A DNA stretch of 64,000 nucleotides from Squalus acanthias. Its lineage: Eukaryota. Below, piece after piece: positions 3,545 through 64,000 of the stretch. The DNA is taken from assembly GCA_030390025.1 (NCBI GenBank), contig CM059431.1:115632001-115696000 (forward strand), written 5' to 3'. Each line of letters opens with the position of its first letter. The stretch's first letter is position 1. The translations under genes and the position numbers were made by a program. The notes under the pieces are model-generated. The model ran no database searches. It saw only the letters and a program-made list of their open reading frames with translations, and was not told the DNA's origin.

Positions 3545-3858
3545 TCTCTGATTCTGCCAGCATTTCACACCTTACCTTTTGTTTCTCAACCTGTCCCATT
3601 ACCATCTCGTCTTGCCTTGAGCATCTCTCAATGTCTCTACTTACCATAGACCATCCCTTTTGTTCTTTTATTCCTCCCCCCAGCCTCCCCCTTGCATTTT
3701 TATCTGTTTATTTCCTGCTCTTTCAGTTCCGACGAAGGGTTTCGACCTGAAACGTTAACTCTCTTTCTCTCTCTCCACGGATGTTGTCTGGCCTGCTGAG
3801 TTTTTCCAGCGTTTTCTGTTGTTATTTCGGATTTCCAGCATCCGCAGTATTTTGCTAT
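3545..3858 (+). mobile_element. Penelope-like element (family A) 3' UTR with a mutated hammerhead motif (3725-3760, core CCGACGA)
   Basis: Similar to the reverse complement of 21640-21930. AGTT-CCGACGA-...-GACCT-GAAA-CGTT-AACT is followed by the family A tail. Confidence 0.75.
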
Positions 3859-8602: not shown

Positions 8603-9292
8603 TGGAGAAAAATTGAGTCGCGGCCCCCTTGGGGCGCTAACTTCGCCGGGGCACTATTTAAAAAAATTAGCGCCCCCGCGGCCGAAATTGTGTGGTAGCA
8701 CTCCAAGAGGGAAGCGGGGCGCTTCTGGAAGCGCCCAGCCTCCCTCTTGGGGCGCTGCGAGGGAATATCGCGGCGCTACATGGCGAAGCGGTACTGCAGG
8801 CCTTCCTCCCCTTCTTAAAGGGGAGGTGCCTTGCGCAGCGCGACCCGGGGCCCAGCTGGGCCCCCGGGGATCGGTGTGCCGGCAAAAGAGCCCGGCACTC
8901 AAGAGAAGTGCCGGGCTCACAGAGCGCAGCTGGCAATCCGCGGGGGGTGCTGCAGAGGAGGCCGGGGACGGCAGAGGAGGCAGGTGCTGACAGGCGGCCA
9001 GCAACAAAAATGGCCGCCCGGCACCTCGCCTTTAATTAGCGTCACCCCGGCCGCAGGTAGGCCCCCGTGACCCCGTCGGAGTTAGTGTCCAGTGGTAAGT
9101 CAGGGGGCGCTACCGAAGATCGCGGCTGGGGCGCGAGCGGGGCGCTGGGCACCGCGATGATGTCATCGCCGGCAGCGCAGCGCCGCGGGGCGCTAACGGT
9201 TACCGTCGCCGCTAACCTCCCGCTGAATTTTGCGCCCAGGCACTAGTTGCTTTGCGCTAACGGGAGGTGCAAAGCAACCAAATCTTTCCCCC
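8603..9292. mobile_element. Harbinger-type MITE (CpG-rich)
   Basis: TAA on both flanks (8600-8602, 9293-9295). Ends TGGAGAAAAATTG / CAAATCTTTCCCCC. Same family as 16330-17036 in opposite orientation. Confidence 0.8.
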
Positions 9293-18180: not shown

Positions 18181-18944
18181 GGCCCGAAAATTAGACCTAA
18201 TACGCGAGAGTACGCACTGTGTACTCTCGCGTATTAGTTCCAGAATTGCCGGTTTCTCGCATGCACTGCGCATGCACGGGAAACCGGCACTTCGTGTATT
18301 GCAAAGGGGGCGGTTCCTAAGTGAACCGCGTGCGCGCTACAGGCTGTGCGCACGCAGTGCACTTAGTTTTTTTTTCAGGTTTGAACGCGCAGGTAAGTGG
18401 TGAAGATTTTACACATAAAGAAAGCAGGCGTAGGACCCCCTTTTAACAAGGTAAGTAGTTAATTAAGTGTTATTTTAAATTTTTTTCAACAGGTTTATCT
18501 TTTTTAGAGACTTTAAAGAAAGGTAAGTTTATTTTTATAACTTTTAAAAAGATTTTAAATTTTTTCAAAAATTTAATTTTTTGTTTAAAGTGGTTAATTT
18601 ATTTAACTATAGTTATTTTATTAATGTGATGGCTTTTTAAAAAAATTAATTGAGGTTTAGCTGTTCTTTTGGGGGCTTGTAGTATTCATAGCTTTGACAG
18701 CCCTTGCTGTCAAAACTATGAATGAAAGATGGTGTGCTGCCATTGGCTCTAACTGGCCCACGTGATCCCAGAGCTCGCACAAACTAATTGCGCCTCTGGG
18801 ACACGCAAGCACTGCACGCCGGCAACAGGGAGAGGCCCTGAAACTGAAGTTCGTGTGGGCCCGAAACAAAAAGGTAGGCGCGGAGTGCGATATCGCGGGG
18901 AATCCTTACCCCCGCGGGAACAATCAATGTTTAATTTCTGGGCC
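18181..18944. mobile_element. Harbinger-type MITE with hairpin-rich ends and an AT-rich core
   Basis: TIRs GGCCCGAAAATT / AATTTCTGGGCC, ATG on both flanks. Confidence 0.8.
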
Positions 18945-19922: not shown

Positions 19923-20307
19923 TCATCAAAACATATAAAATTCTGACAGGTCTGGACAAACTAGATGCAGGAAGAATGTTCCCGATGGTCGGAGAGTCCA
20001 GAACCAGGGGTCATAATCTAAGGATAAGGGGTAAGCCATTTAGGACAGAAATGAGGAAGAATTTCTTCACCCAGAGAGTGGCGAACCTGTGGAATTCTCT
20101 ACCACAGAAGGTAGTTGAGGCCAAGTCATTAAATATATTCAAGAATGAGTTAGATATATTTCTTAAAGCTAAAGGTATCAAGGGATATGGGGAGAAGGCA
20201 GGTACAGAGTTTGGATGATCAGCCATGATCTCATCGAATGGCGGAGCAGGCTCGAGGGGCCGAATGGCCTACTCCTGCTCCTATCTTCTATGTTTCTATG
20301 TTTCTAT
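19923..20307 (+). mobile_element. CR1 LINE 3' end
   Basis: YKILTGLDKLDAGRMFPM...TRGHNLRIRG...FFTQRVANLWNSLP, with a (TTCTATGT)n tail. Confidence 0.92.
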
Positions 20308-20802: not shown

Positions 20803-21069
20803 CATAGAAACATAGAAACATAGAATCTAGGAGCAGGAGTAGGCTATTCGGCCCGTCGAGCCTGCTCCACCATTCAATACGATCATGGCTGATCATCCAA
20901 ATCCAGTACCCTGTCCCTGCTTTAATCCCCACAGTACACATATCCCACCCTACCCCCGTATTTAATTCCCCCTAACATATCCCATCCTATCCCCACATAT
21001 TTAATCCCCCCCTAACACTAAGGGTCAATTTATCATAGCCAAATCAACCTAACCCGCACATTTTTGGAC
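20803..21069 (-). mobile_element. 5'-truncated HE1-type SINE
   Basis: Reverse complement of the 3' half of the SINE at 24839-25253, with a CR1-type (CATAGAAA)n tail. Confidence 0.85.
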
Positions 21070-21639: not shown

Positions 21640-22103
21640 ATAAAAATAGAAAATGCTGGAGATACTCAGCAGGTCAGGCAGCATCTGTGAAGAGAGAAAC
21701 AGAGTTAACGTTTCAGGTCGATGACCTTTCATCAGAACTGGAAAAACGTAGGAAATGGAACAGATTTTTAAGCAAGTGTAAGGGCAGGGAAATGGGGGAG
21801 GGGATGAAAGAACAAAAGGGAAGGTCTGTGATATGATAGGAGGCAGGAGAGGTTAAGAGACATTAAGAGATATTCAAGGCAAAAGGAATTGGTAATGGGA
21901 CAGGTTAAGAAACAAAGGATGGCTCGAGATGAAGTGTGAATTGCGCTGGCAGAATGAAAGACAGCCGTCATGTGGGAGGGAAGAAAAAAAGGCACAAACA
22001 AAAAGTGTGGATAAAATATATATATGTGATAGGGGCCGAGGTTATGATCTGAAATTGTTGAACTCTATGTTGAGTCCAGAAGGCTGTAAAGTGCCTAATC
22101 GAA
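21640..22103 (-). mobile_element. Penelope-like element (family A): end of the GIY-YIG ORF plus 3' UTR
   Basis: Minus strand reads FRLGTLQPSGLNIEFNNFRS* (PLE endonuclease C-terminus). Flanks AGCTTTTCTTAAT / AGCTTTTCCAAT look like a TSD. Confidence 0.85.
21703..21739 (-). ncRNA. Minimal type I hammerhead ribozyme motif (family A, intact)
   Basis: AGUU-CUGAUGA-A-AGGUC(AUC)GACCU-GAAA-CG-UU-AACU: stem I AGUU/AACU, 5-bp stem II, palindromic AACGUU in place of stem III. Confidence 0.8.
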
Positions 22104-31989: not shown

Positions 31990-33791
31990 ATGAAAGTTGG
32001 TGAAATGGTTTTCGTGTTCTTTAATGCAGGATTAAAGAAGTGGTGAAAGATGTAACAAGGACTATCCAAGCACCTGAACCTTTGGGGGCGGTTTTGCCAG
32101 CCCTGGGGAGGCGGGTTTGGAGGTGGGACTGCCGGGAAAATGGCAGAATCTGGGGGCGGGTACCCATCCCGCGCCCAACTCGCCTCCGTGCCACCTTCCC
32201 AGGAGGCGGGTACCTGACCCACACCGGGTCCCATCTCCTGGAGGCGGGTAGGGGATTACATCCACTTAACTGCCTGTTAACAGGTAGTTAGCAGGCAGTT
32301 AAGAGGATTATCCCCATTTTTCCATCATAGGTGCGGGCTTCCCGACGTCGGGAAATCCTGCCAGGGTCAGCGAAGCGAGCAGTGAGTCTGCGGGGGTCGG
32401 AGGGGTCCAAAAGTGCACTGTGGAGGTGATTGAGTGGAAAGTGAGAGAAAAAGTTTACTTACCTTTGTTTCTTCCTGCAGGCTTCAGTCGTTGGGGATGC
32501 GAAGGCTCCGGCATCTCAATGGCAGAGATGACAGAATGGCTGCTGCATTCTCCCATGCAACAGCCATCTGCTTTCTGCTCACAAAAGAGGTTTGGTGAGC
32601 CTTGAGTACAAGAACTCACCAAACAACAGAGAATGTCAGTGTTTGACAACTTCGCAAAGCTGTCGAACGATGACAATTCATCTGTCAAAATTTTTTGACA
32701 GATGAAACGTCATACGCTGACGTTCTCTGTAACCAGCTTCCCCTTAATTGCCCTACTAAGCCCACTGGGCGGGCTTAACAAGGTCAATCAAGGGAAAATA
32801 GCGTGAGTTGGCCACAATTCGATGGAGGTGGGACTAAAACCCGACAAGCAGCAGTCCCACCTCCAACGCGCCCCCATTGGCAAAATCACCCCCAAAGTGC
32901 CCTAGGGTGTGTTCAGTGATGTTCCTGGTGGTCCCATGACTGTTGTTGTACCTGAACTGTGCAGGCATGGTGGGGTTGCGGAGTGGTGTCATTACCCATG
33001 TGTGGAGGGGATAGCTTTTGTCCCTAAACAGCCAACATCTAATATTCCTAGAAGAGTGTAATAATGGGAAAATGGTTGACTTTCACAGGACAAAGGTATA
33101 GTGAGAGCGGCCTGCAAAGGTGGCACAGACTTACGCTATTCTTTCGCAAATATCACTGACCAGCTGGACATTACTGGAGTGAAAGATCTTCCTCTTGATG
33201 ATATCTCCTGGTTGGTCTTCTGGTACCTTAATGGCTACATGAATGCAGAGTATAACCTCTTTGGACACAAGGGAAGCCAGCCAATGCAGCAAATCCCAGA
33301 TCTCTCTCATTTTGACTGAATGAAAGGTGATATATTGGACGTCCCTGGCAAGTAGGCCACTGGTGATCTGCTTGATGCATTTGTGCACTGTGAGAGATGT
33401 CCCCCGGGGCATCCTGGAAGGAGTCTGAGACAAAAAAGTTAGGAATGGTGGTGACTTTGACAGTCATCGGCAAAGTATGGCCAACTGGCCTAGCAGGCAG
33501 TAGGTCTTGTTGCAGGAGGCAGAACAACCAGAGAGAGCCTGCCTAGAGATGTACAGTCTTCTCATGCACTCCCGCCTCAGAGATATCAAGGAAACAAATT
33601 TTTGGCCTACAGACCATGTGGTTTGGGTAAGGCCTTCTTGAGCAGGCCAACCCCCTCACCTGTTGCCTTCTAAAAGGCCCGCATGCTGCTTCTCCTGGTT
33701 GTTACGGCTGCTGCAGATGTCCTTGCTACTGCTGCTCCTCTTCCTCCTCCTCTTAATCCATCCACAGCCATGGAGCAAGAATAGCACCCAT
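31990..33791 (-). pseudogene. Decayed Harbinger transposase, split by a MITE
   Basis: Minus-strand fragments MGAIL..., TLPMTVKVT..NFF.SDSFQ, RYNNSHGTTRNITEHTLG | QRFRCLD, with many stops and frameshifts. Confidence 0.8.
32085..32893. mobile_element. Harbinger-type MITE with a multi-hairpin core
   Basis: TIRs GGGGCGGTTTTGCCA / TGGCAAAATCACCCC. TSD not cleanly resolved. Confidence 0.75.
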
Positions 33792-36014: not shown

Positions 36015-36727
36015 GGGGGAGAAATTCATTATAGCCCCGTTTGGGCACTAACTTATAAAAGTTGAGAAAATTAGCGGCAGGCGCTAATGTTTTTCAACTT
36101 TAAAAAAATTCAGGGTTTGCGCTCCAGGAAGGAAGTGGAGCTAAATCAAGCGTTCCATTTCCTTCCTGGAGCACAACAGGCAGCAGGCGGGGTGGTAGGT
36201 GTGCAGCTCTGTACAATGGGCCGTGCAGCGCTGGCGCGTTGGAAGGCTCCTTCCCTCCCGTAAAGGGAAGGGCCATCGCTGCAGACTCTGCAAGGGCAAA
36301 ACTTACCTGGTCCCCGACTGCAGCAGAGTGCCGGGCTGATCGATCGCTGGCGAAGAAAAATGAAGAAAAAAACAGAAAGAGCATTTGAGATTTTTTTCCC
36401 ACTTACCTCGGCCACCTCGCCTTTAAGTATCGCCCCCGAAACGCCCGGCCTCCCGATCAACGCCTCCTGCAGCTGCCGGTGTTGTCGCCCGGCGATGTTG
36501 CAGGGGGCGGAACCGAAGTTGGGGTCCGGTGATGCGCACGGCGATGACGTCATGATCTCCGGGTGAAGGAGATCGGGGTGCAACGCCATACCGTCGTCGC
36601 AAACCTCCCACCGAATATAGCGGGAGTTGATCTTCTCGCCGCGCCCCGTCGATAAGTGCTTAGTGCCCCATTATCACCCCCACCGGAGGCGATAACGGGA
36701 GGCGCTAAGGTGTCTAATTACTGGCCC
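36015..36727. mobile_element. Harbinger-type MITE (CpG-rich)
   Basis: Left end GGGGGAGAAATTCA equals the TIR at 43731. The right subterminus resembles 47860-48044. TGACGTCA at 36545. Confidence 0.8.
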
Positions 36728-39686: not shown

Positions 39687-39900
39687 AAAGAAAGAAAGAC
39701 TTGGGTTTATAGAGCGCCTTTCACAACCTCAAGACGTCCCAAAGCGCTTTACAGCCAATGAAGTACTTTTTGAAGTGTAGTCACTGTTGTAATGTGGGAA
39801 ACACGGCAGTCAATTTGCACACAGCAAGCTCCCACAAACAGCCATGCGATAATGACCAGATAATCTGTTTTAGTGATGTTGGTTGAGAGATAAATATTGG
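39687..39900 (-). mobile_element. SacSINE1/Deu-type SINE 3' half
   Basis: Closely similar to 9348-9545, with an (AAAG)n tail. Confidence 0.8.
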
Positions 39901-40148
39901 ATAATAGATATTAACCCATTGAGATTTGCAGGCGCTAAAATACCAGCCAGGGGAATGTCCCACGAAAGCGGTGAGTGTTTGCTCATTGAAAATGCTGACA
40001 ATAATTTTCCGGCTGCACTGTTTGCTTCCAGGCGATCGACTGAAGAACAGAGAGACCTGGGGGTTTATGTGCACAAATCGTGGAAGGTGGCAGGGCAGGT
40101 TGAGAAAGCAGTTAAAAAAACATACGGGATCCTGGGCTTCATCAATAT

Positions 40149-40376
40149 AATTGAGAGGTCGCACAACACCAGGTTATAGTCCAACAGTTTTATTTGAAAT
40201 CACAAGCTTTCGGAGCTATCGATCGCCCCTTCCTCAGGTGAAGTACTTCACCTGAGGAAGAGGCGATCGATAGCTCCGAAAGCTTGTGATTTCAAATAAA
40301 ACTGTTGGACTATAACCTGGTGTTGTGCGACCTCTCAATTTTGTCCACCCCAGTCCAACACCGGCATCTCCGCATC
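40149..40376. mobile_element. Penelope-like (family B) foldback insertion: 192-bp palindrome plus 3' tail
   Basis: Arms 40149-40244 / 40245-40340 match at 95/96. TSD CTTCATCAATATA (40137-49, 40376-88). The right arm and tail match 62719-62850. Confidence 0.92.
40200..40289. ncRNA. Pair of divergent minimal hammerhead motifs (40200-40241 minus, 40248-40289 plus)
   Basis: UCAC-CUGAGGA-A-GGGGC(GAUCGAUA)GCUCC-GAAA-GC-UU-GUGA. The plus copy has one stem II mismatch. Confidence 0.75.
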
Positions 40377-41825
40377 TTCATCAATATAGGCATAGAGTAC
40401 AAATGCAAGGAAGTTATGGTGAACCTTTATAAAACACTGGTTCGGCCACAACTGGAGTATTGTGTCCAATTCTGGGCACCGCACTTTAGGAAGGATGTGA
40501 AGGCCTTAGAGAGGGTGAAGAAAAGATTTACAAGAATAGTTTCAGGGATGAGGGACTTCAGTTATGTGGCTAGACTGGAGAAGCTGGGGCATAGAAGGTT
40601 AAGATGAGATTTGATCGAGGTGTTCAAAATCATGAGGGGTCGAGACAGAGTAGATAGAGAGAAACTGTTCCCCTTGGTGGAAGGGCCAGAGGACACAGAT
40701 TTAAGGTGATTGGCAGAAGAACCAAAGGCGACATGATGAAAAGCTTTTTTACACAGCGAGTGGTTAGGATCTGGAATGCATTGCCTGAAAGGGGGGTGGA
40801 GGCAGATTCAATCGTGGCTTTCAAAAAGGAATTGGATAAGTACCTGAAGGAAAAAAAATTGCAGGGCTACGGGGAAAGGGTGGGGGAGTGGGACTAGCTG
40901 AAGTGCTCTTGCAGAGAGCCGGTACGGGCTCGACAGGCAGAATGGTCTTCTATTGTGCTGTAGCCATTCTATGATTCTACATATGTGTCATTTTCAGGCT
41001 AGTTTCATGAACGCAGAAGTGTGTTCAGGCCAGCTGAGAAGCCAGAAGCCAATGCAGGACTATAATAAAAATGCTTTTTAAAAACTAAAATGGCGGATAT
41101 GAAATAAAGTGAGAAAATAACTTCCCGAGTGGAATTATTACACGTTTTACTTACTGAAGCTTACAATATGGACATGCAGAGGGAAGATTTCCTCTGTGTA
41201 GCAAAATCATAAACACATTCCTTATAAATGGGTTCATGGTTTTCTTGCACACAGAGGAAATTTTCCCTTGTAACTGGCTAACCAAAGGGGATATTGGTAC
41301 TTTAAACGAAGCTTCAAACAAAAGTATATGGAGGTTCTTTTGATGTTTGGAGTGAGGCTGATGGATTTCATTTTTTGGTACTTTTTGTTTATTATATTTG
41401 AGGGCCGTTGAGGGGTTTTCCGTGCAAAACTGGAGCAAATTAAACGATTCATTTTTAACAATGTTACATTGAAATGCAAGATCCAGCTCACTTTTCATTC
41501 ACCGGCTGGTTCCTTTCTGTAAAAGGAAAAATTGTACTGTTTCTTAGAATAAAAACACTGTAGATTCATCATTCACAGGAAAGGATGTTTTGACTTTTTC
41601 CCTGAGCTTCTGCAGCAGTCATCAAAGGGATTAGGATAAAGGGACAGTTCAAAACAAGTTCAGACCGCCATTTGAAACCCTTTTCAAGAGACGAGTCTCG
41701 GGAAATCCAGAACACTGTGGTTTTTCTGTACCAAAAAAAAATCATTAAATACTTTTACCTTATATGGGGATCTTTCATTTACCAACCGCTGCAAATCAGT
41801 GATGTTCCAAGGGCAGATTTCTCCA

Positions 41826-44091: not shown

Positions 44092-46072
44092 ATGGAGAGG
44101 GTGAGAGAACGAGCTCAGCGCTTCAGTGAGCGGGCCTTGGATGCTCTGGTTGGCGCGGTGGAGCGCAGAAGATCTATACTCTTCCCTGAGAGTGGCAGGA
44201 GGCCTTTGCCGCGCGAGTACAGAAGAGTGTGGAGGGAGGTGGCTCAGAGCATCTCCTCCAGGAGCATGGTGCCCAGGACCCATATACAATTACGAAGAAA
44301 GTTCAACGACCTCACTCGGATCGTCAGGGTGAGTGGCTTTTTTTCAATACCTCTCCATCCCTCCATCTTAACCTCACTCTATGGCCAGAGGGTCTTAAAA
44401 TCCCAATGCACAACACTCATCCATCACCTATGGCCCTCTCATGAAACATACACGCACGTTCCACACTTTGCATACAGTAAGGGCTATTCACCTATGGGAG
44501 GCACATCAGGCAAGGCCATGGCTGCATACAGTAAGAGCTATTCACCTATGGGAGGCACATCAGACAAGACCATGGCTGCATACAGTAAGGGCTATTCACC
44601 TATGGGAGGCACATCAGGCAAGACCATGGCTGCATACAGTAAGGGCTATTCACCTATGGGAGGCACATCAGGCAAGACCATGGCTGCATACAGTAAGGGC
44701 TATTCAACTATGGGAGGCACATCAGGCAAGACCATGGCTGTATATTTACTCAGACGCCATCCTTTTTCTTGCAGGCCAAGCTATCTCATAATAGGAGACA
44801 GCAGCAACGGACGGGTGGAGGGCGGCCTCAGCTGCAACCCCTCAGCGATCTTGAGGCACGCGTCCACAGGATTGTGGCAAGCCGGGTGATCGGTCCCGTC
44901 GCCACTGGAGACGCCGACCCCATTCTGGACAGCAATGGTAAGGTCATCACCTTTTTGTCCTCTGTCCTTCCACTTGTCCCTCACAACACCAGCCTTTGAC
45001 ACTTTCAATCCAACTTACTAAATCGCTGCACTCATTCCTCCCTTACTGCCCCCCTGTCTTCATGCTAAAGCCACTCTTGTACCTCCCTGCTTTCAGATGG
45101 TGATTCACCAGCTGAGGAGACGGGCCCTCAAGCTGCCAGTGGGAGTGAAGCTGCAGCCGAGGAGGAAGATGAAGGCGGAGCATCAGCGCCACCCTCTCCC
45201 TTGAAGCCCATGCCCACACTGGGAACACGCCTTCCCTGGAGGGGAGCAGGGGGGAAGGGTCTGATGAGGGTGAAGCTCCAGGACCCAGCGGGCTGCAACA
45301 ACGCCATGGGGTTAGGGAAGCTCAGGGGCCTTCTCCCCGGAGGGAGAGTATGCCAGCGAGTCCTACTGCACTGGACGCAGAGGAGGAGCGGCGCATCACT
45401 GAAATGAACACCCAGGCGGTGGACATGCACACTGAGCTCATGGGTGCAGTGGGAAGGGTGCCCGAATGCATTGAATCACTGGCAAGGCGTGTGGAGCACT
45501 TCGCTGCAGCACAGGCGGATGCCACGCAAATATTTAGTGCTGCAATTCAGTCAATGGCTGCCATGAACCCATCTCTGACTGCTCTCCTGCAGACTCATAT
45601 TGAGGCCACGCGAGCACTGACTGCTGCCATCCTCGATGGTTCGTACACATTTCCCCGGGGCTCTCACCGCGCCGCAGCAGGCCAGCAATCTGTGCTCCAG
45701 CAGATTGCTCCGGATGCTGAAGTGCTGCCCCGTTGGAGTGCCAGTGTGTCGGTCGAGCAGGAAGTTGCTGTCCTCTCTCAAGATGACAGCATTCCTGCTG
45801 CCACCACTGTCACTTCTCCACTGCACTTGCCACTGCCTGTAGGACAGACTGCTGCCGCCCATGCAGAGTTGGTGCAGTCTGCAGCCGGGCCCTCCAGGCC
45901 CAGAGCTGGTCGAGGCCGTCCTTCAAGGGCATCTGCAGTCTCAGGTTCTGACAATCAGCAGCCTTCCACCAGCCTTGCTGCAGCCACTGAGGTCCCATTA
46001 CGGAGGAGCAGTAGGGTGGGAAGGGGGGAAGTGCGCAAGGGAAGGAGATCACCCTCGAAGGGCAAAAAGTAG
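44092..46072 (+). pseudogene. Harbinger Myb/SANT-like DNA-binding protein gene; exons 44092-44328, 44775-44937, 45097-46072; frameshift near 45200-45240
   Basis: Trihelix-like RFSERALDALV...LFP...VWREVA...RTHIQLRRKFNDL, then AKLSHNRR...RTGGG. GT-AG introns in phases 0 and 1. The spliced frame stops at 45407 while another frame runs to 46072. Confidence 0.85.
44469..44740 (+). repeat. Tandem repeat, 5 x 54 bp, in intron 1 of the Myb-like gene
   Basis: Unit GCTGCATACAGTAAGGGCTATTCACCTATGGGAGGCACATCAGGCAAGACCATG, 0-2 substitutions per copy. Confidence 0.97.
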
Positions 46073-54965: not shown

Positions 54966-56656
54966 CCACCGCCACGTGTCTTTCCCAGATGCCGGGTCTG
55001 TCAGCGCTGAACAGACCCGACACACGGGGGCGGGGGAGGAAATTCAGGTCATTATGAAATTGTTAATAACCCATTAAGAAGTATTTTGAGCTGGCCTTTA
55101 CATTTTACAAGGATGCCCACGAGGTTCACGCTGCTCAGGGATCACGTCAAGTAAGCAGGTCGGGAGTTGTATGACCATGGGAACATCTCATTACTTGACA
55201 GCTTGAAATGTGCTATAAAAGTTCCCATCTCACAGCTGTTCACTTTCCAAGCTCAGAAGCTGTTGCTTACTGCATTTGGAAGACAGATTGAGCTTTATGC
55301 AGGTTACAAGTGTTTGGAGTAAACTCTCTATCCAGTGTCACCTCATTGGAACAAACTTTCTCACCATTGATAGATCACTTCTATCATCTCAAGTTCACCT
55401 GCCATCTATTACATGAGCATCGTTGTCCTTGAAACTATCTCACCTTGGTCCTCAGAATCCCATCACGATCAGCCCCAATACCAGCAGAACCAGGTACACC
55501 AGCAGCACCAACAACAACACCAACCTTCTCCGCAATCAACTGATGCTGCACAGGACACAGGGCATCAGCACCCGACCACATTGCTGCCCGGGAGGCCAGG
55601 GACAGCCTCACCATGGCCACATTTACTTCACTTGACGCTGTACACCCTGGCTGCCACATGATGTGCCAGGTTGTCACCACCCCACACCAACACCCTAAAG
55701 CATCACTACAATGCCCAAGCCATTCCTTTCATATGCATCATCATTGCGGGGGGTACCGTTAAGTCTCACCATTCACTGCAACTCACTAAGCCACTTCCAA
55801 AGGTGCACACAGATCTGTCCAAGAAGGCCAAGTGTTGAAAATAAAGGTTTCTATGTTTGACACAACATTAACAGAAACTTTACATGAACATTGGCTAAAA
55901 CACCCAAGTGCCTACCCTTGTGTGTTGTTAGTTAGTATGATTGGACTAGGATGAGGGTGAGTGTGAGGGGTGGCTAGTGAGATGGGGAAGTGATAATGTA
56001 GATAGAGAGGGATGGGTGGAGGTACAAGGTAAGTTGTTGTGAGTGAGGATGTGCAGGAGTAGGGTAGGGAAGGCAGAGTGATGGGGATATGATGAGTGGG
56101 TACAGCAGGATGAGGTTGAGTGTGGCTTTGCAGTAACGTTTTGTGATCTACTGAGATCATTTATGGTTTGCGCCACTGCAGCCTGGTCCTCCTGATGATA
56201 CCCTGCTTGTGTCCTCCTGTGCAATGTGCAACCAGGCTGTGTTGGTCTCCTGGGGAGGTCTCTTCCGCCCATTGGAAGGGAAGAGAACATCCCTGCGTGC
56301 TGTGACTCCCTCCATAAGTATATGGAGGGAGTCATGGTAGAGCCTGGGTGCAGACGTGCACCTCTGTGCAGTGATTGTCAGTGTTTGCAGCACCTCAATG
56401 CTGTAGAACACTGACAGCACAACTGTCAAACTAAATTTGCGCATGGTCCCTTTAAGGAAATCGGCTGATAAAGCATCATCAAATTATGTCATCAGACCCG
56501 CTTCCTTCAATTGGCCGGGAAACGCGCTGGGCAGGGCTTAACAAGCCCAATCGGGGGAAAATCATTTTGGACAGCGGGCTGGAGCCAGCAGCGGGGTCGG
56601 GACCCGCCACCGATGTCACCCGCCACGGACCCGCCGAGGTTGGTAAAATCCAGCAC
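54966..56656. mobile_element. Internally deleted Harbinger, inverted second copy of the 10024-15530 family (left TIR lost)
   Basis: Myb exon remnant ~56140-56380 (-), Gln-rich remnant 55413-55661 (+), end AAAATCCAGCAC. Confidence 0.85.
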
Positions 56657-56856
56657 AATGTTTCAGATCGATGAATTTTCATCAGAACTGGAAGGAGTTA
56701 GAGATGTAACAGATTTTAAGCAAGTGCCGGAGCGGGGAAAGTGGGGAGGGAAGGAAAGAACAAAAGGGAAGTTCTGTGATAGGGTGATAGGGTGGAAGGC
56801 AGGATTGATTAAATGACAAATGGTATGATTGTACAAAGCAAAAGGAGATGGTAATT

Positions 56857-59758: not shown

Positions 59759-60366
59759 ATAGAGTCATAACGGCACAGAAGAAGGCCATTCGGCCCATCG
59801 AGTCCGTGCCAGCTCTCTGTAGAGCAATCCAGTTTGTCCCATTCCCCCGTTCTATCCCCGTAGCCCTGCAAGTTGATTTCCCTCAAGTGCCTATCTAGTC
59901 TCCCCTTGAAAACATTCAGTGTCTCCGCTTCCACCACTTCCGTCGGCAGCGAGTTCCAGGTTCTCACCACTCGCTGTGTAAAAAAGTTTTTCCTCACGTC
60001 CCCCTTGTATCTCTTGCCCAAAACCGTAAATCTGTGTCCCTAGTCCTTGTACCATCAACTAGTGGGAAAAGCCTTTCCTCGTCTAGCCTATCCAAACCCA
60101 TCATAATCTTGTACACCTCTTTTGCTCTAATGAAAACAAATCCAGCTTCTCCAACCTGTCTTTGTAGCTAAGATCCCCCATCCCCGGAACCATTCTGGTA
60201 AATCTCCTCTGCACCCTCTCAAATGCCTTCACATCCTTTCTAAAGTGTGGTGACCAGAACTGGACACAATACTCCAGTTGTGGCCTAAGCAGCGCTTTAT
60301 AAAGGTTCAGCATAACTTCTCTACTTTTGTACTCAATACCTCTATTTATGAAACCCAAGATCCCAT
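59759..60366 (-). mobile_element. CR1 3' fragment; its tail continues at 58848-58865 beyond the MITE
   Basis: GILGFINRGIEYKSREVM...QRRFTRM and KNFFTQRVVRTWNSLP, with a (CATAGAGT) tail. Confidence 0.9.
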
Positions 60367-61657
60367 CAGTCCTATCTACAAATGTGACATCATGACTGAG
60401 GAGGTGCAACAGGAAGAAGTGCCTACACGCCCCTCCCCAGTGGAATTTGTCAGCGTTTACGCTGTTTTTCTGGGTTTCTAGCACCCTTCTGCCAAAGTTA
60501 CAATGGCCAAGCGGGAGAACCCCCACCCCCCACCCCCCCCCCCCCCCGGCAGAAATTCACCCCCATTGTTTTCCTCCCAATTCTATCCAATTCTCTCCTA
60601 ATGATTGTGACTCATGTTGGGACTGTTTCATAGTTATTGGCTGCCCAAACATTCATTCTTCATGTATGAGACAAATGGATTGTGGAGAACTTCATAGCTG
60701 TGCCCAATGTTGTCCTCACGCAAGAATAACAACAACAATTTATGTAGTTCCTTTAATGTAGAAAAATGTCCCAAGTTGCGTCACAGAGGCATGTACACTT
60801 TTCAGCAGAGATCACTTGATAGCCATCAGAGCACAAAGCCTGCCTGATTTTCTCCTCCCTATCCCAGAGACTTCCAGAGGTGAATTGTAGTGCCTTCATT
60901 TCCAGTCAGCTGAGATCAGACAAATGAACAAAGGTCAAAGATCGAACCTGTTGCCTCCCTGGCATACATGGCTCATGTGCTGCATTGTGTGGTGCATTTA
61001 CCTCCTAAGATATTGAGAAAGCAAAGACTTGTAAAGCAGGGAAGCCTTCCGAGCATTAAAACACAAACACAGTTGGCGACTGTGTTACTCCAGGCGTAGT
61101 CACTCAACCTGGAAATGGTAATAGAAAGTCAGGAGAGTGCTTGCGTGAAATTTCTGTCCCTTCCCCCAATGTGTCCATATCACTAGTTCACCCTCTTTAA
61201 TGTAGCTAAGATGCAGATGATGGGGCCCAAGAAAGCTAACAAGAGGGATCGGCCTTCGTCTTAAACTCTTTGTAGCAGTGAAACCTGAAGTGAAATTAAC
61301 AGCATCAAGTGGATTCAGCTGGTGTGCTCAGGCCAAATCCTCTGAATTGCCCTAAGGGCAAAACAGAGGACACAGCTAAGTAATTCCTGCGTAGATTTTA
61401 GATAGGGAATGGGGAGAAGGGTAACAGAGGCTTAGTGTAGGATTAGAACTATAGTATGGCGCTGTTCACTACCTATGCTGAATGACACCAGAGAGGGAAT
61501 GGCCATTATATCACTTACTGGTAAATTGTTTGCCATTTTTACTTCTGATTCTGTCCATCATTTAGTTTTTTGATTAATATGGCACCATTTTGCAACTTCT
61601 ATGACCTAGGGAAATGGCATATATAACCACGTTATAGTCCAACAGTTTTATTTGAAA

Positions 61658-61699
61658 TCACAAGCTTTCGGAGCTATCGATTGCTCCTTCCTCAGGTGA
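61658..61699 (-). ncRNA. Minimal hammerhead ribozyme motif in the inverted arm
   Basis: Exact reverse complement of 62722-62763. Confidence 0.8.
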
Positions 61700-62033
61700 A
61701 GTAAATTAGATACAGAATCGCCAAAGCATATATAGATAGAGAACAAAGCATGTGTACCTTACAATTGCAGACCACTAAATTAAATCATCCTGACTATCTG
61801 CCGAGGTGTGATAAAGTTAATCAAGTCAGCCAGGAAGGTACCACATCAAAGACATAGCAAGATACAACTGAGACAATGAGGTGTAGTTGCAGGGGTTCTA
61901 ACGTGCCAAAAGTTGCCGTCTGTATGTAAAACGAAAAGCTTTAAAATTTTTACTTTTTTACTGGGAAAATTTTTACTTTTTTACTGGGAATCACATCTGT
62001 GAACAAGCCAACGACGACTCGAGTCCGGATCAC

Positions 62034-62388
62034 TACCCACCAGGTACATGGTACATACTCATGTGACTCGGCCAACGTTGTCTACCTCATACGTTGCAGG
62101 AAAGAATGCACCGCGGCATGGTACATCGGCGAGACCATGCAGACACTGAGACAACGTATGAACGAGCACCGCGCAACAATCGCCAGGCAGGATTGTTACC
62201 TCCCAGTCGGGGAACACTTCAGCAGTCAAGGACATTCAGCCTCGGATCTGCGGGTAAGCGTTCTCCAAGGCAACCTTAGAAACACACGACAACGCAAAAT
62301 CATCGAGCAGAAACTGATAGCCAAGTTCCGCACTCATGAAGACGGTCTCAACCGGGATCTTGGGTTTATGTCACGATACATGACGTGA
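62034..62388 (+). CDS. GIY-YIG endonuclease domain, the C-terminal fragment of a PLE ORF (within ORF 61999..62388)
   Basis: SCDSANVVYLIRCRKEC..WYIGET..LRQRMNEHR..EHFSSQGH..RKIIEQKLI..GLN: VVY/YIG, conserved Arg, Glu and Asn, and a CCHH motif. No stops. No true start codon. Confidence 0.9.
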
Positions 62389-62721
62389 TCCGGACTCGAG
62401 TCGTCGTTGGCTTGTTCACAGATGTGATTCCCAGTAAAAAAGTAAAAAAAATTTCCCAGTAAAAAAGTAAAATTTTTTAAAGCTTTTCGTTTTACATACA
62501 GACGGCAACTTTTGATACGTTAGAACCCCTGCGACTACACCTCATTGTCTCAGTTGTATCTTGCTATGTCTTTGATGTGGTACCTTCCTGGCTGACTTGA
62601 TTAACTTTATCACACCTCGGCAGATAGTCAGGATGATTTAATTTAGTGGTCTGCAATTGTAAGGTACACATGCTTTGTTCTCTATCTATATATGCTTTGG
62701 CGATTCTGTATCTAATTTACT

Positions 62722-62763
62722 TCACCTGAGGAAGGAGCAATCGATAGCTCCGAAAGCTTGTGA
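62722..62763 (+). ncRNA. Minimal type I hammerhead ribozyme motif (family B)
   Basis: UCAC-CUGAGGA-A-GGAGC(AAUCGAUA)GCUCC-GAAA-GC-UU-GUGA. Predicted cut after 62759. AATAAA follows at 62769-74. Confidence 0.82.
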
Positions 62764-64000
62764 TTTCAAATAAAACTGTTGGACTATAACCTGGTGTTGT
62801 GCGACCTCTCAATTTTGTCCACCCCAGTCCAACACCGGCATCTCCGCATCATATATAACCACCGCAGGGGTTCCAACTGTGCCTGGATTTTATTGTTAGT
62901 TGCAGCAACGGTTTTACAATTACCTTTACTGTACACAACGGAAGGACCCAAAACAAATTCTATTTGTTTGCTTGGACAAGTGTGTTCTGGGCAGATTTCA
63001 AATAGCCATTTGAATGTTATTCCTTATGATCACAACCCACTTTTAGCATTGCCATCTTCTCACCTTTGTAAGAGTAATTCACTTGTTTAATGGATTTAAA
63101 TCATCTAACAAACATCTATCACCTCTCAATGCAAAATGTGGCAGTCTTTCTCTGTCACCAGAGGTTTGAATCCTGGCATGGATTTCTCAGACACGGCACA
63201 TCTTAGTGCAGCTTCTGGGTTTTTGTCCATCAGTTGCGAGCCGCACTCTGACTTCATCAGAATGATTGCTGAGAATGTTGACTCGCACAATGAGATGCAC
63301 CAGACCTGCCCCTCTCTCCATCCAGAACGCAGTTTGGAAACTGTTTGCCCTTTTCCATGACGTGTCGTGCTGGAGCTGCTCGTTATTGGTTGGACTTGCT
63401 TTCTTCTGCTGGCCTGGAGCAGTTATTCCGATTGGTCTGTCTCCATACAATGTTGCTGGTGATTCCATGGTGCTGAAATCTGGTGTTCTCACCCGTGTTA
63501 CACACCATTTTAGCAGATAATCAATTAGCAGTAACCAAGGAAGGAAAGCGCGCACAACGATCAAAAATCACTCGGACACTCAGCTTTACATCTTGCCATT
63601 TTGCCAACAAACGCACAAATAGATTAAAGTTCACATGCGTCATGTCGTGCAAATATGATTATTGAGATCATATGCCCAACGATAGTGTCTATTAATCATC
63701 TTTTATTTACTAATCAAAAATTCAATTAGCCACATGTGACTAATGGCGAATGTAATGGACATCACTCTTCTAAAGTGCCAATCCCTGAAACTTGCTATAA
63801 GAGCATCAGACAGCGTGTGGTGACTGACTCACATTGGAATGTGGCCTGATGTGCTCTCAGAGACAGGTATACTTGCATGAACTTCCACTAGTCTCTATCT
63901 GCCTCTTTTATTAGTGCCTAAATACTTCTTTCGCCTATACTGCAAATACTGGGGACGATGTAATAACTGAATCTTAAATAAGGAGGTATTGGACAGACAG

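Follow-up and report, generated by a model that had tools for sequence, protein, structure and literature searches.

A palindrome whose arms meet without a single nucleotide between them, with a hammerhead-like sequence on either side of its centre and the remains of another retroelement around it, raises the question of how its two halves were made. Such a palindrome occupies most of a small insert in the window, as the whole 64,000-nucleotide stretch of Squalus acanthias DNA analysed here is called. In the earlier note it was seen either as a snap-back product of Penelope-like element (PLE) reverse transcription or as a small retrozyme-like unit moved in trans. An origin in PLE reverse transcription is supported by derivation from the family of element B, located 22 kb away, and by the layout and 3' end that both elements have in common. 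The insert can be regarded with good confidence as a one-off, very short insertion of this family, an endonuclease-bearing, apparently Neptune-like PLE, whose mirror half was made during integration. This reading is based on the inverted 5'-truncated copy, the tail, the target-site duplication (TSD) and the opposite-strand minimal hammerheads, all of which are published features of PLEs.

The palindrome and its target site

The following features make up the insert and its surroundings:

40039..40961, + strand: host CR1-type LINE fragment, split by the insert; it covers the 3' part of ORF2 plus the 3' end
40137..40149, + strand: left TSD, 13 bp; its last base fits the element too, hence 11-13 bp
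40150..40244, - strand: inverted arm, reverse complement of family-B 62719-62813, with an intact minimal hammerhead motif
40244..40245, no strand: turn point T/A, a 2-nt self-complementary overlap with a spacer of 0; the B template differs just outside it
40245..40339, + strand: forward arm
40248..40289, + strand: forward-arm minimal type I hammerhead motif; helix I of 4 bp, core 40252-40258, unpaired A 40259
40340..40375, + strand: 36-nt PLE 'tail', in the forward copy only; identical to 62814-62849
40376..40388, + strand: right TSD; its first base fits the element end too

As had been described, the arms (40149-40244 and 40245-40340) are 96 nt each with 0 nt between them, and the turn lies 7 nt before each CTGAGGA core (40252 on the + strand and 40237 on the - strand). 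The sole mismatch between the arms is 40228 C vs 40261 A. Because the outermost palindrome pair borrows the final base of the left TSD, the insert proper starts at 40150 and comprises 226 bp (40150-40375), i.e., a palindrome of 95+95 bp and the 36-nt tail; it contains no ORF, and all of it except the tail is palindrome. The tail, which had been called unique, is so inside the insert, but it has the same letters as the 3' end of B. The longest exact run of the palindrome is 79 bp, vs 8-15 bp in 20/20 approximate dinucleotide shuffles of the window, and the arms of the remaining listed short-spacer palindromes of the window (n=5) do not exceed 23 bp. No direct repeats besides the TSD were found in 39800-40700. 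Other repeats of the window include small imperfect hairpins which do not belong to family B (8703-8750, 18192-18242, 18684-18723, 32670-32713, 36117-36176, 41180-41268 and 56300-56337), an inverted pair (20201-20307 / 20804-20910; 90% alike and 496 nt apart) that apparently consists of LINE 3' ends placed tail to tail, and a young tandem array at 44469-44744 with a period of about 54 nt and units 95-97% alike.

The two TSD copies at the insert are identical (13/13). The earlier claim that they split a CR1 frame is borne out, with the left frame ending in YGILGFINI and the right one reading FINIGIEYK. Two paralogs of the host element in the window, near 60352 and 28325 (74% and 67% like the host CR1, respectively), contain the unbroken site, GFINRGIEYK and AFISRGIEYK, which represents the empty-site sequence. 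Since the frame ends and restarts across the duplication and is unbroken in two paralogs, the duplication is a true target-site duplication. The two short pieces of the host fragment were unrecognised in a Pfam search, and we take the fragment to be CR1 from the paralog alignments together with general knowledge of the family.

Element B and its family

Element B, in a point missed by the earlier note, resembles the insert in its layout, which consists of a 13-bp TSD, an inverted arm, a forward copy and the common 3' end, and differs from it in having a spacer of 351 bp vs none:

61618..61630, + strand: left TSD of B, 13 bp
61631..62033, - strand: inverted arm of B, 403 bp, reverse complement of 62385-62790; intact hammerhead motif, core 61695
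62034..62384, + strand: spacer of B, 351 bp; holds the 3'-terminal part of the PLE ORF, which encodes a GIY-YIG endonuclease (stop codon 62386-62388)
62385..62849, + strand: forward 3' region of B; hammerhead motif intact (core 62726), 59-nt tail at 62791-62849
62850..62862, + strand: right TSD of B, 13 bp

The insert had been taken for the terminal part of family B, and its right arm and tail indeed match 62719-62850 at 129/132 nt; it is by this identity that the insert, with no ORF of its own, is linked to an endonuclease. Only two B-family copies, the insert and B, were compared. Both B-family insertions of the window have a 13-bp TSD (13/13 identical) and the shared 3' end, and in both an inverted 5'-truncated copy stands beside a forward copy, while their turn points and tail lengths differ (36 vs 59 nt). 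The inverted arm of B ends exactly at the endonuclease stop codon (62033 / 62385-62388), a position covered by a CAC/GTG overlap, and this end may, as a single case, mark a pLTR or transcript boundary.

The spacer of B matches the GIY-YIG domain PF01541 of Pfam with 23.5 bits (cut-off 22.6), and the best relatives of its ORF are shark RT-GIY-YIG proteins, at 85-88%. The reverse transcriptase domain PF00078 is present in the top relative (P0001) and absent from the window, B being truncated. A C-x4-C-x2-C linker occurs in 3/3 relatives inspected, in a region that is cut off in B itself; a CX2-5CxxC linker before the GIY-YIG domain is the mark common to Neptune and Nematis (PMC8557442). Judging from these relatives, family B appears to be a Neptune-like PLE. 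This piece of PLE endonuclease also occurs inside several shark gene models (P0010, P0015, P0024, P0025, P0029 and others) that bear host-gene names, e.g., septin 5a, XRCC5, FAM210B, PPP1R12A-like and a cytochrome P450, which would be either annotation artefacts or cases of exonisation.

Within and between the two insertions, the arms differ in an informative way. At the equivalents of 62736 and 62739 both insert arms have G and both B arms have A, and the third difference between insert and B is private to the right arm of the insert. Alleles are therefore shared within and differ between insertions, from which it follows that the arms of each insertion were made from one template. On these alleles the insert would be derived from a sister copy of B; for the part of that copy upstream of the turn, B and one related family serve as proxies. 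The insert arms differ at 1/95 sites (95% interval 0.03-5.7%) and the B arms at 5/402 sites plus 4 gap columns, one of which stems from an alignment offset. The youth ascribed to the insert holds relative to its surroundings, given this low arm divergence, an intact TSD and the divergence of the host CR1 from its paralogs. We thus consider with fair confidence that the insert is young compared with the host CR1, an estimate that gives no absolute age and in which arm conversion could hide age.

More information on the family comes from sequencing runs, of which a run search listed 24 (best share 0.51, no RNA run among those listed); 4 of the 24 were aligned to the forward strand of B (62034-62900). 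On this strand, the two runs consisting of raw reads contributed 13 and 0 reads. In the contig run X7, 13,344 contigs aligned to it, 4,277 of them at 99% or more, and 29/30 bins were covered; summed contig depth in these runs is not a copy number, and hairpins are poorly kept in contigs. The A>G change at 62739 is a common family allele in X7 (68 contigs). Because 146 X7 contigs (114+32) have loose ends at 62852-62853, the terminus located there is a feature of the family. Opposite-strand joints in the two contig runs amount to one (62084/62205) among the 5 joints listed. The other contig run, X1, represents a related family, with a depth of 0-1.5 over 62440-62700 that becomes high from about 62730 and a loose-end consensus that agrees with B from 62716. 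This related family matches B at the endonuclease end and again over the last 135 nt, without sharing the 330 nt in between, and the stretch from the hammerhead to the terminus looks like a conserved module. Further loose ends were seen at 62821 (X7, 17 contigs) and at 62805/62809 (X1), which could be second start sites or reflect family divergence.

Hammerhead motifs

Hammerheads were searched for with a descriptor of the minimal hammerhead that is purpose-built and not a curated model. It matches 4 cores in the window, two of them in the forward and inverted parts of B, one in the left arm of the insert and one in a copy of another family, and none in 30/30 shuffles. A search of the whole window with Rfam at E<=1 gave no hammerhead and one chance-level match elsewhere, and it is motif and context that point to these sequences as candidate hammerheads. 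The motif is built of a 4-bp helix I, an unpaired A before helix II and a palindromic AGCT that replaces helix III. The earlier note counted two hammerheads in the insert. The left-arm copy (core 40237, - strand; predicted cut after 40204) passes the descriptor, but the right-arm copy fails it at helix II, because the lone arm mismatch breaks that helix. In this forward-arm motif, helix II (40260-40277) is broken by the A at 40261, and the rest consists of GAA, the palindromic AGCT and position 17 at 40285. The value for the + motif, with its broken helix II, is -3.5 kcal/mol, vs -7.1 and -7.2 kcal/mol.

A transcript of the insert from either strand contains one sense motif. Unconstrained folding of the arms did not give a hammerhead fold (z -0.83, 0.01 and -0.32), and forcing helices I and II has a predicted cost of 74.9 (+) and 71.2 (-) kcal/mol in the whole insert and of 2.6 kcal/mol in the single 3' end of B, with a helix III dimer lying outside the model. 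According to these folding predictions, the hammerhead in an insert transcript would be locked within a long hairpin, and such a transcript, if any is made, would be a 95-bp double-stranded hairpin and not an active ribozyme. Ribozyme cleavage was considered as the cause of the turn and rejected, the predicted cut (after 40285) lying 40 nt away from it.

The window also contains a second, older hammerhead-bearing repeat family, found at 21735 (-) and in partial copies near 694, 3702-3858, 37176, 54905, 56657-56726 and 57261. Its copies are 80-94% alike and have a different helix III palindrome, one of them passes the descriptor, and in 6/6 copies checked no inverted arm of their own was found within 1.5 kb.

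Origin of the mirror half and relation to known systems

Several other origins have to be weighed against a one-off PLE insertion. Fold-back chimeras are a known library artefact, and a fold-back read could in principle have produced the palindrome in the library or the assembly, but this is very unlikely. Such chimeras do not make target duplications, and here the CR1 frame evidence and the true TSD, a clean 13-bp duplication whose removal restores the frame, argue against them, as do the arm mismatch, the 36-nt asymmetry and the existence of a second element (B) of identical build. Less improbable, yet unlikely as well, is that the insert belongs to a discrete non-autonomous family, in which a 226-bp hairpin unit would itself be transcribed and then mobilised by the PLE protein acting in trans, so that many copies would have the same centre. 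The forward arm approximates the stretch common to B and the X1 related family and has the appearance of a minimal conserved module; moreover, pLTRs on their own are able to mobilise DNA in trans (PMC3846280), and MRC1 is an example of a non-autonomous PLE derivative (PMC8557442). A single X1 contig joint also enters at 62719 (1/12 rows, depth 4.8, kind not given), which carries little weight, as this row may be an alignment edge placed where likeness to B begins. However, there is one copy of the unit in 64 kb, and neither a joint nor a loose end at 62718-62719 appears among the rows listed for X7, the run closest to this family, in a listing that leaves out 590 loose-end rows and in contigs that keep hairpins poorly. 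Exact-pattern scans gave 0 matches to the fold point in metagenome contigs and 0 to the family in viral, metagenome and prokaryote genome contigs, which is uninformative, since shark DNA is not expected in such collections. In addition, a re-copied unit would be expected to acquire another inverted arm, and the RNA of the anole PLE needs about 55-60 nt past its start site (PMC11167929), which a solo end would lack. This requirement suggests, across clades, that a solo end is dead on arrival, and the insert, which encodes nothing, is probably so. Were the family real, the 226-bp unit would be a hairpin-type non-autonomous PLE, of a kind not found in the literature searched.

The least probable of these origins is the retrozyme-like unit put forward in the earlier note, in which a small RNA would be cut out and closed into a circle by two hammerheads and subsequently reverse-transcribed. 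Its appeal lies in a well-formed minimal motif that recurs in the window and not in its shuffles, in a TSD of more than 4 bp as in animal retrozymes, and in the argument that the latter stem from PLE ends (bioRxiv 10.64898/2026.07.22.740005). Retrozymes nevertheless require direct tandem repeats (PMC7229834; bioRxiv 10.64898/2026.07.22.740005), whereas the copies in the insert are inverted; each strand has one sense motif, under a predicted folding penalty of 71-75 kcal/mol, the + motif has a broken helix II, and minimal hammerheads taken singly showed no cleavage in vitro (PMC4209133). With hammerheads that are inverted and self-locking instead of arranged in direct tandem, this part of the earlier proposal did not hold.

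Within the explanation as a one-off PLE insertion, we lean towards a two-primer route. The GIY-YIG endonuclease would nick AT-rich DNA on its two strands, at positions 13 nt apart (the TSDs are 77% and 69% AT). The 3' end of the bottom strand would prime reverse transcription at the 3' terminus of the element, and that of the top strand would use the same sense RNA as template from a point 36 nt inside that terminus (59 nt in B), thereby giving rise to the tail. Synthesis of both cDNAs would end shortly beyond the hammerhead, plausibly where the RNA is broken, and the two would be joined 3' end to 3' end via TA/TA (CAC/GTG in B, in which one cDNA would be 351 nt longer), after which repair would fill them in. 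At the turn, the insert and the B template agree only through the T/A, with no loop and no template hairpin; in B, the overlap is CAC, as judged from the loose-end consensus of the related family and the start of the protein match.

Self-priming or snap-back, as named in the earlier note, is a credible but less probable route to the same PLE insertion, and later loss of a spacer is an improbable one. The PLE part of the snap-back proposal stands, but the folding back itself is difficult to reconcile with a zero-base loop and a B template that supplies no hairpin at the turn. Since a strand cannot fold back without a loop, plain snap-back would have to involve bases added without a template or subsequent repair, and the zero-base loop would thus better fit two cDNAs joined via a 2-nt TA overlap. 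Against the two-primer route, two cDNAs that end at one base need an extra assumption, either that the RNA ended there for both or that they were trimmed back to the overlap, and junction palindromes are read in PMC3846280 as self-priming on an antisense template, not as the work of two primers. The anole PLE protein, for its part, cuts and extends both target strands in vitro, with two start sites that bound the tail and a predicted dimer (PMC11167929). A doubtful extension of the two-primer route is that there is a preferred shared cDNA end just 5' of the hammerhead, with a PLE dimer that uses a single RNA for priming from both ends of the target. If the centre were such a hot spot, or a family founder, the base 7 nt before the core would mark a programmed RNA end or stop.

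In all, the insert is a clean, small example of an already described PLE insertion shape. As a single locus it matters little, and its value is mechanistic: with no loop at the turn and an overlap of 2 nt, two-primer joining can be told apart from snap-back. Inserts of this kind may also seed double-stranded RNA and cruciforms. In L1 twin priming, internal priming on the RNA from the second end of the target results in a 5' inversion joined by microhomology; its pieces hardly overlap, whereas in the insert the forward piece is repeated in the inverted one. The making of PLE inverted ends is still called undefined (PMC8557442). The literature searched, a scope outside of which most subscription papers and the supplements fall, contains no title on shark PLE hairpins or PLE twin priming; the supplements of PMC4209133 and PMC11167929 may contain shark or spacer-less cases, and prior art also includes PMC6155905.

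An inverted 5'-truncated copy and a tail of 30-40 bp are standard for PLEs (Craig et al. 2021, PMC8557442), and inverted pLTRs, a TSD of 8-10 bp and palindromes of 18 and 38 bp at the inverted junction have been described (Arkhipova et al. 2013, PMC3846280). The insert resembles these endonuclease-bearing PLE insertions (PMC3846280, PMC8557442) in its head-to-head inverted copy on the 5' side, the tail at one end, the TSD, the palindrome at the inverted junction and the landing in another LINE. It differs from the Adineta insertions in having arms of 95 bp vs junction palindromes of 18 and 38 bp, and from the published PLE insertions in its TSD (13 bp vs 8-10 bp) and in the lack of an ORF. With respect to the published tail of 30-40 nt, the 36 nt of the insert fall within the range and the 59 nt of B outside it. 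For PAc, the Poseidon element of Anolis carolinensis (Frangieh et al. 2024, PMC11167929), cutting and extension of both strands from two internal start sites would give exactly the arm-and-tail layout seen here. Both systems have an AT-rich target, but they appear to differ in clade, the linker motif for family B, as judged from its relatives, being Neptune-like; the parts of the PAc paper covered hold no model of the inverted junction, and the target-element overlap at the junctions here is 1-3 nt.

Regarding the ribozyme motifs, dual minimal hammerheads 100-700 bp apart and on opposite strands occur in metazoan PLEs (Cervera & De la Pena 2014, PMC4209133). The motifs of the insert agree with them in being of type I, with a 4-bp helix I, an unpaired base between positions 9 and 10.1, a G10.1-C11.1 pair and a palindromic 15.1-16.1 segment. 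They differ in the distance between cores (14 bp here vs about 100-700 bp), in helix II (5 bp here vs 7-8) and in the forward copy, which is mutated here. With non-LTR retrozymes (PMC7229834; Li et al. 2026 preprint), the insert has in common its small size, the absence of coding capacity, a type I hammerhead and a link to PLE ends. Those retrozymes consist of canonical hammerheads in direct tandem and form circular RNA (Cervera & De la Pena 2020, PMC7229834), whereas the insert contains an inverted minimal pair.
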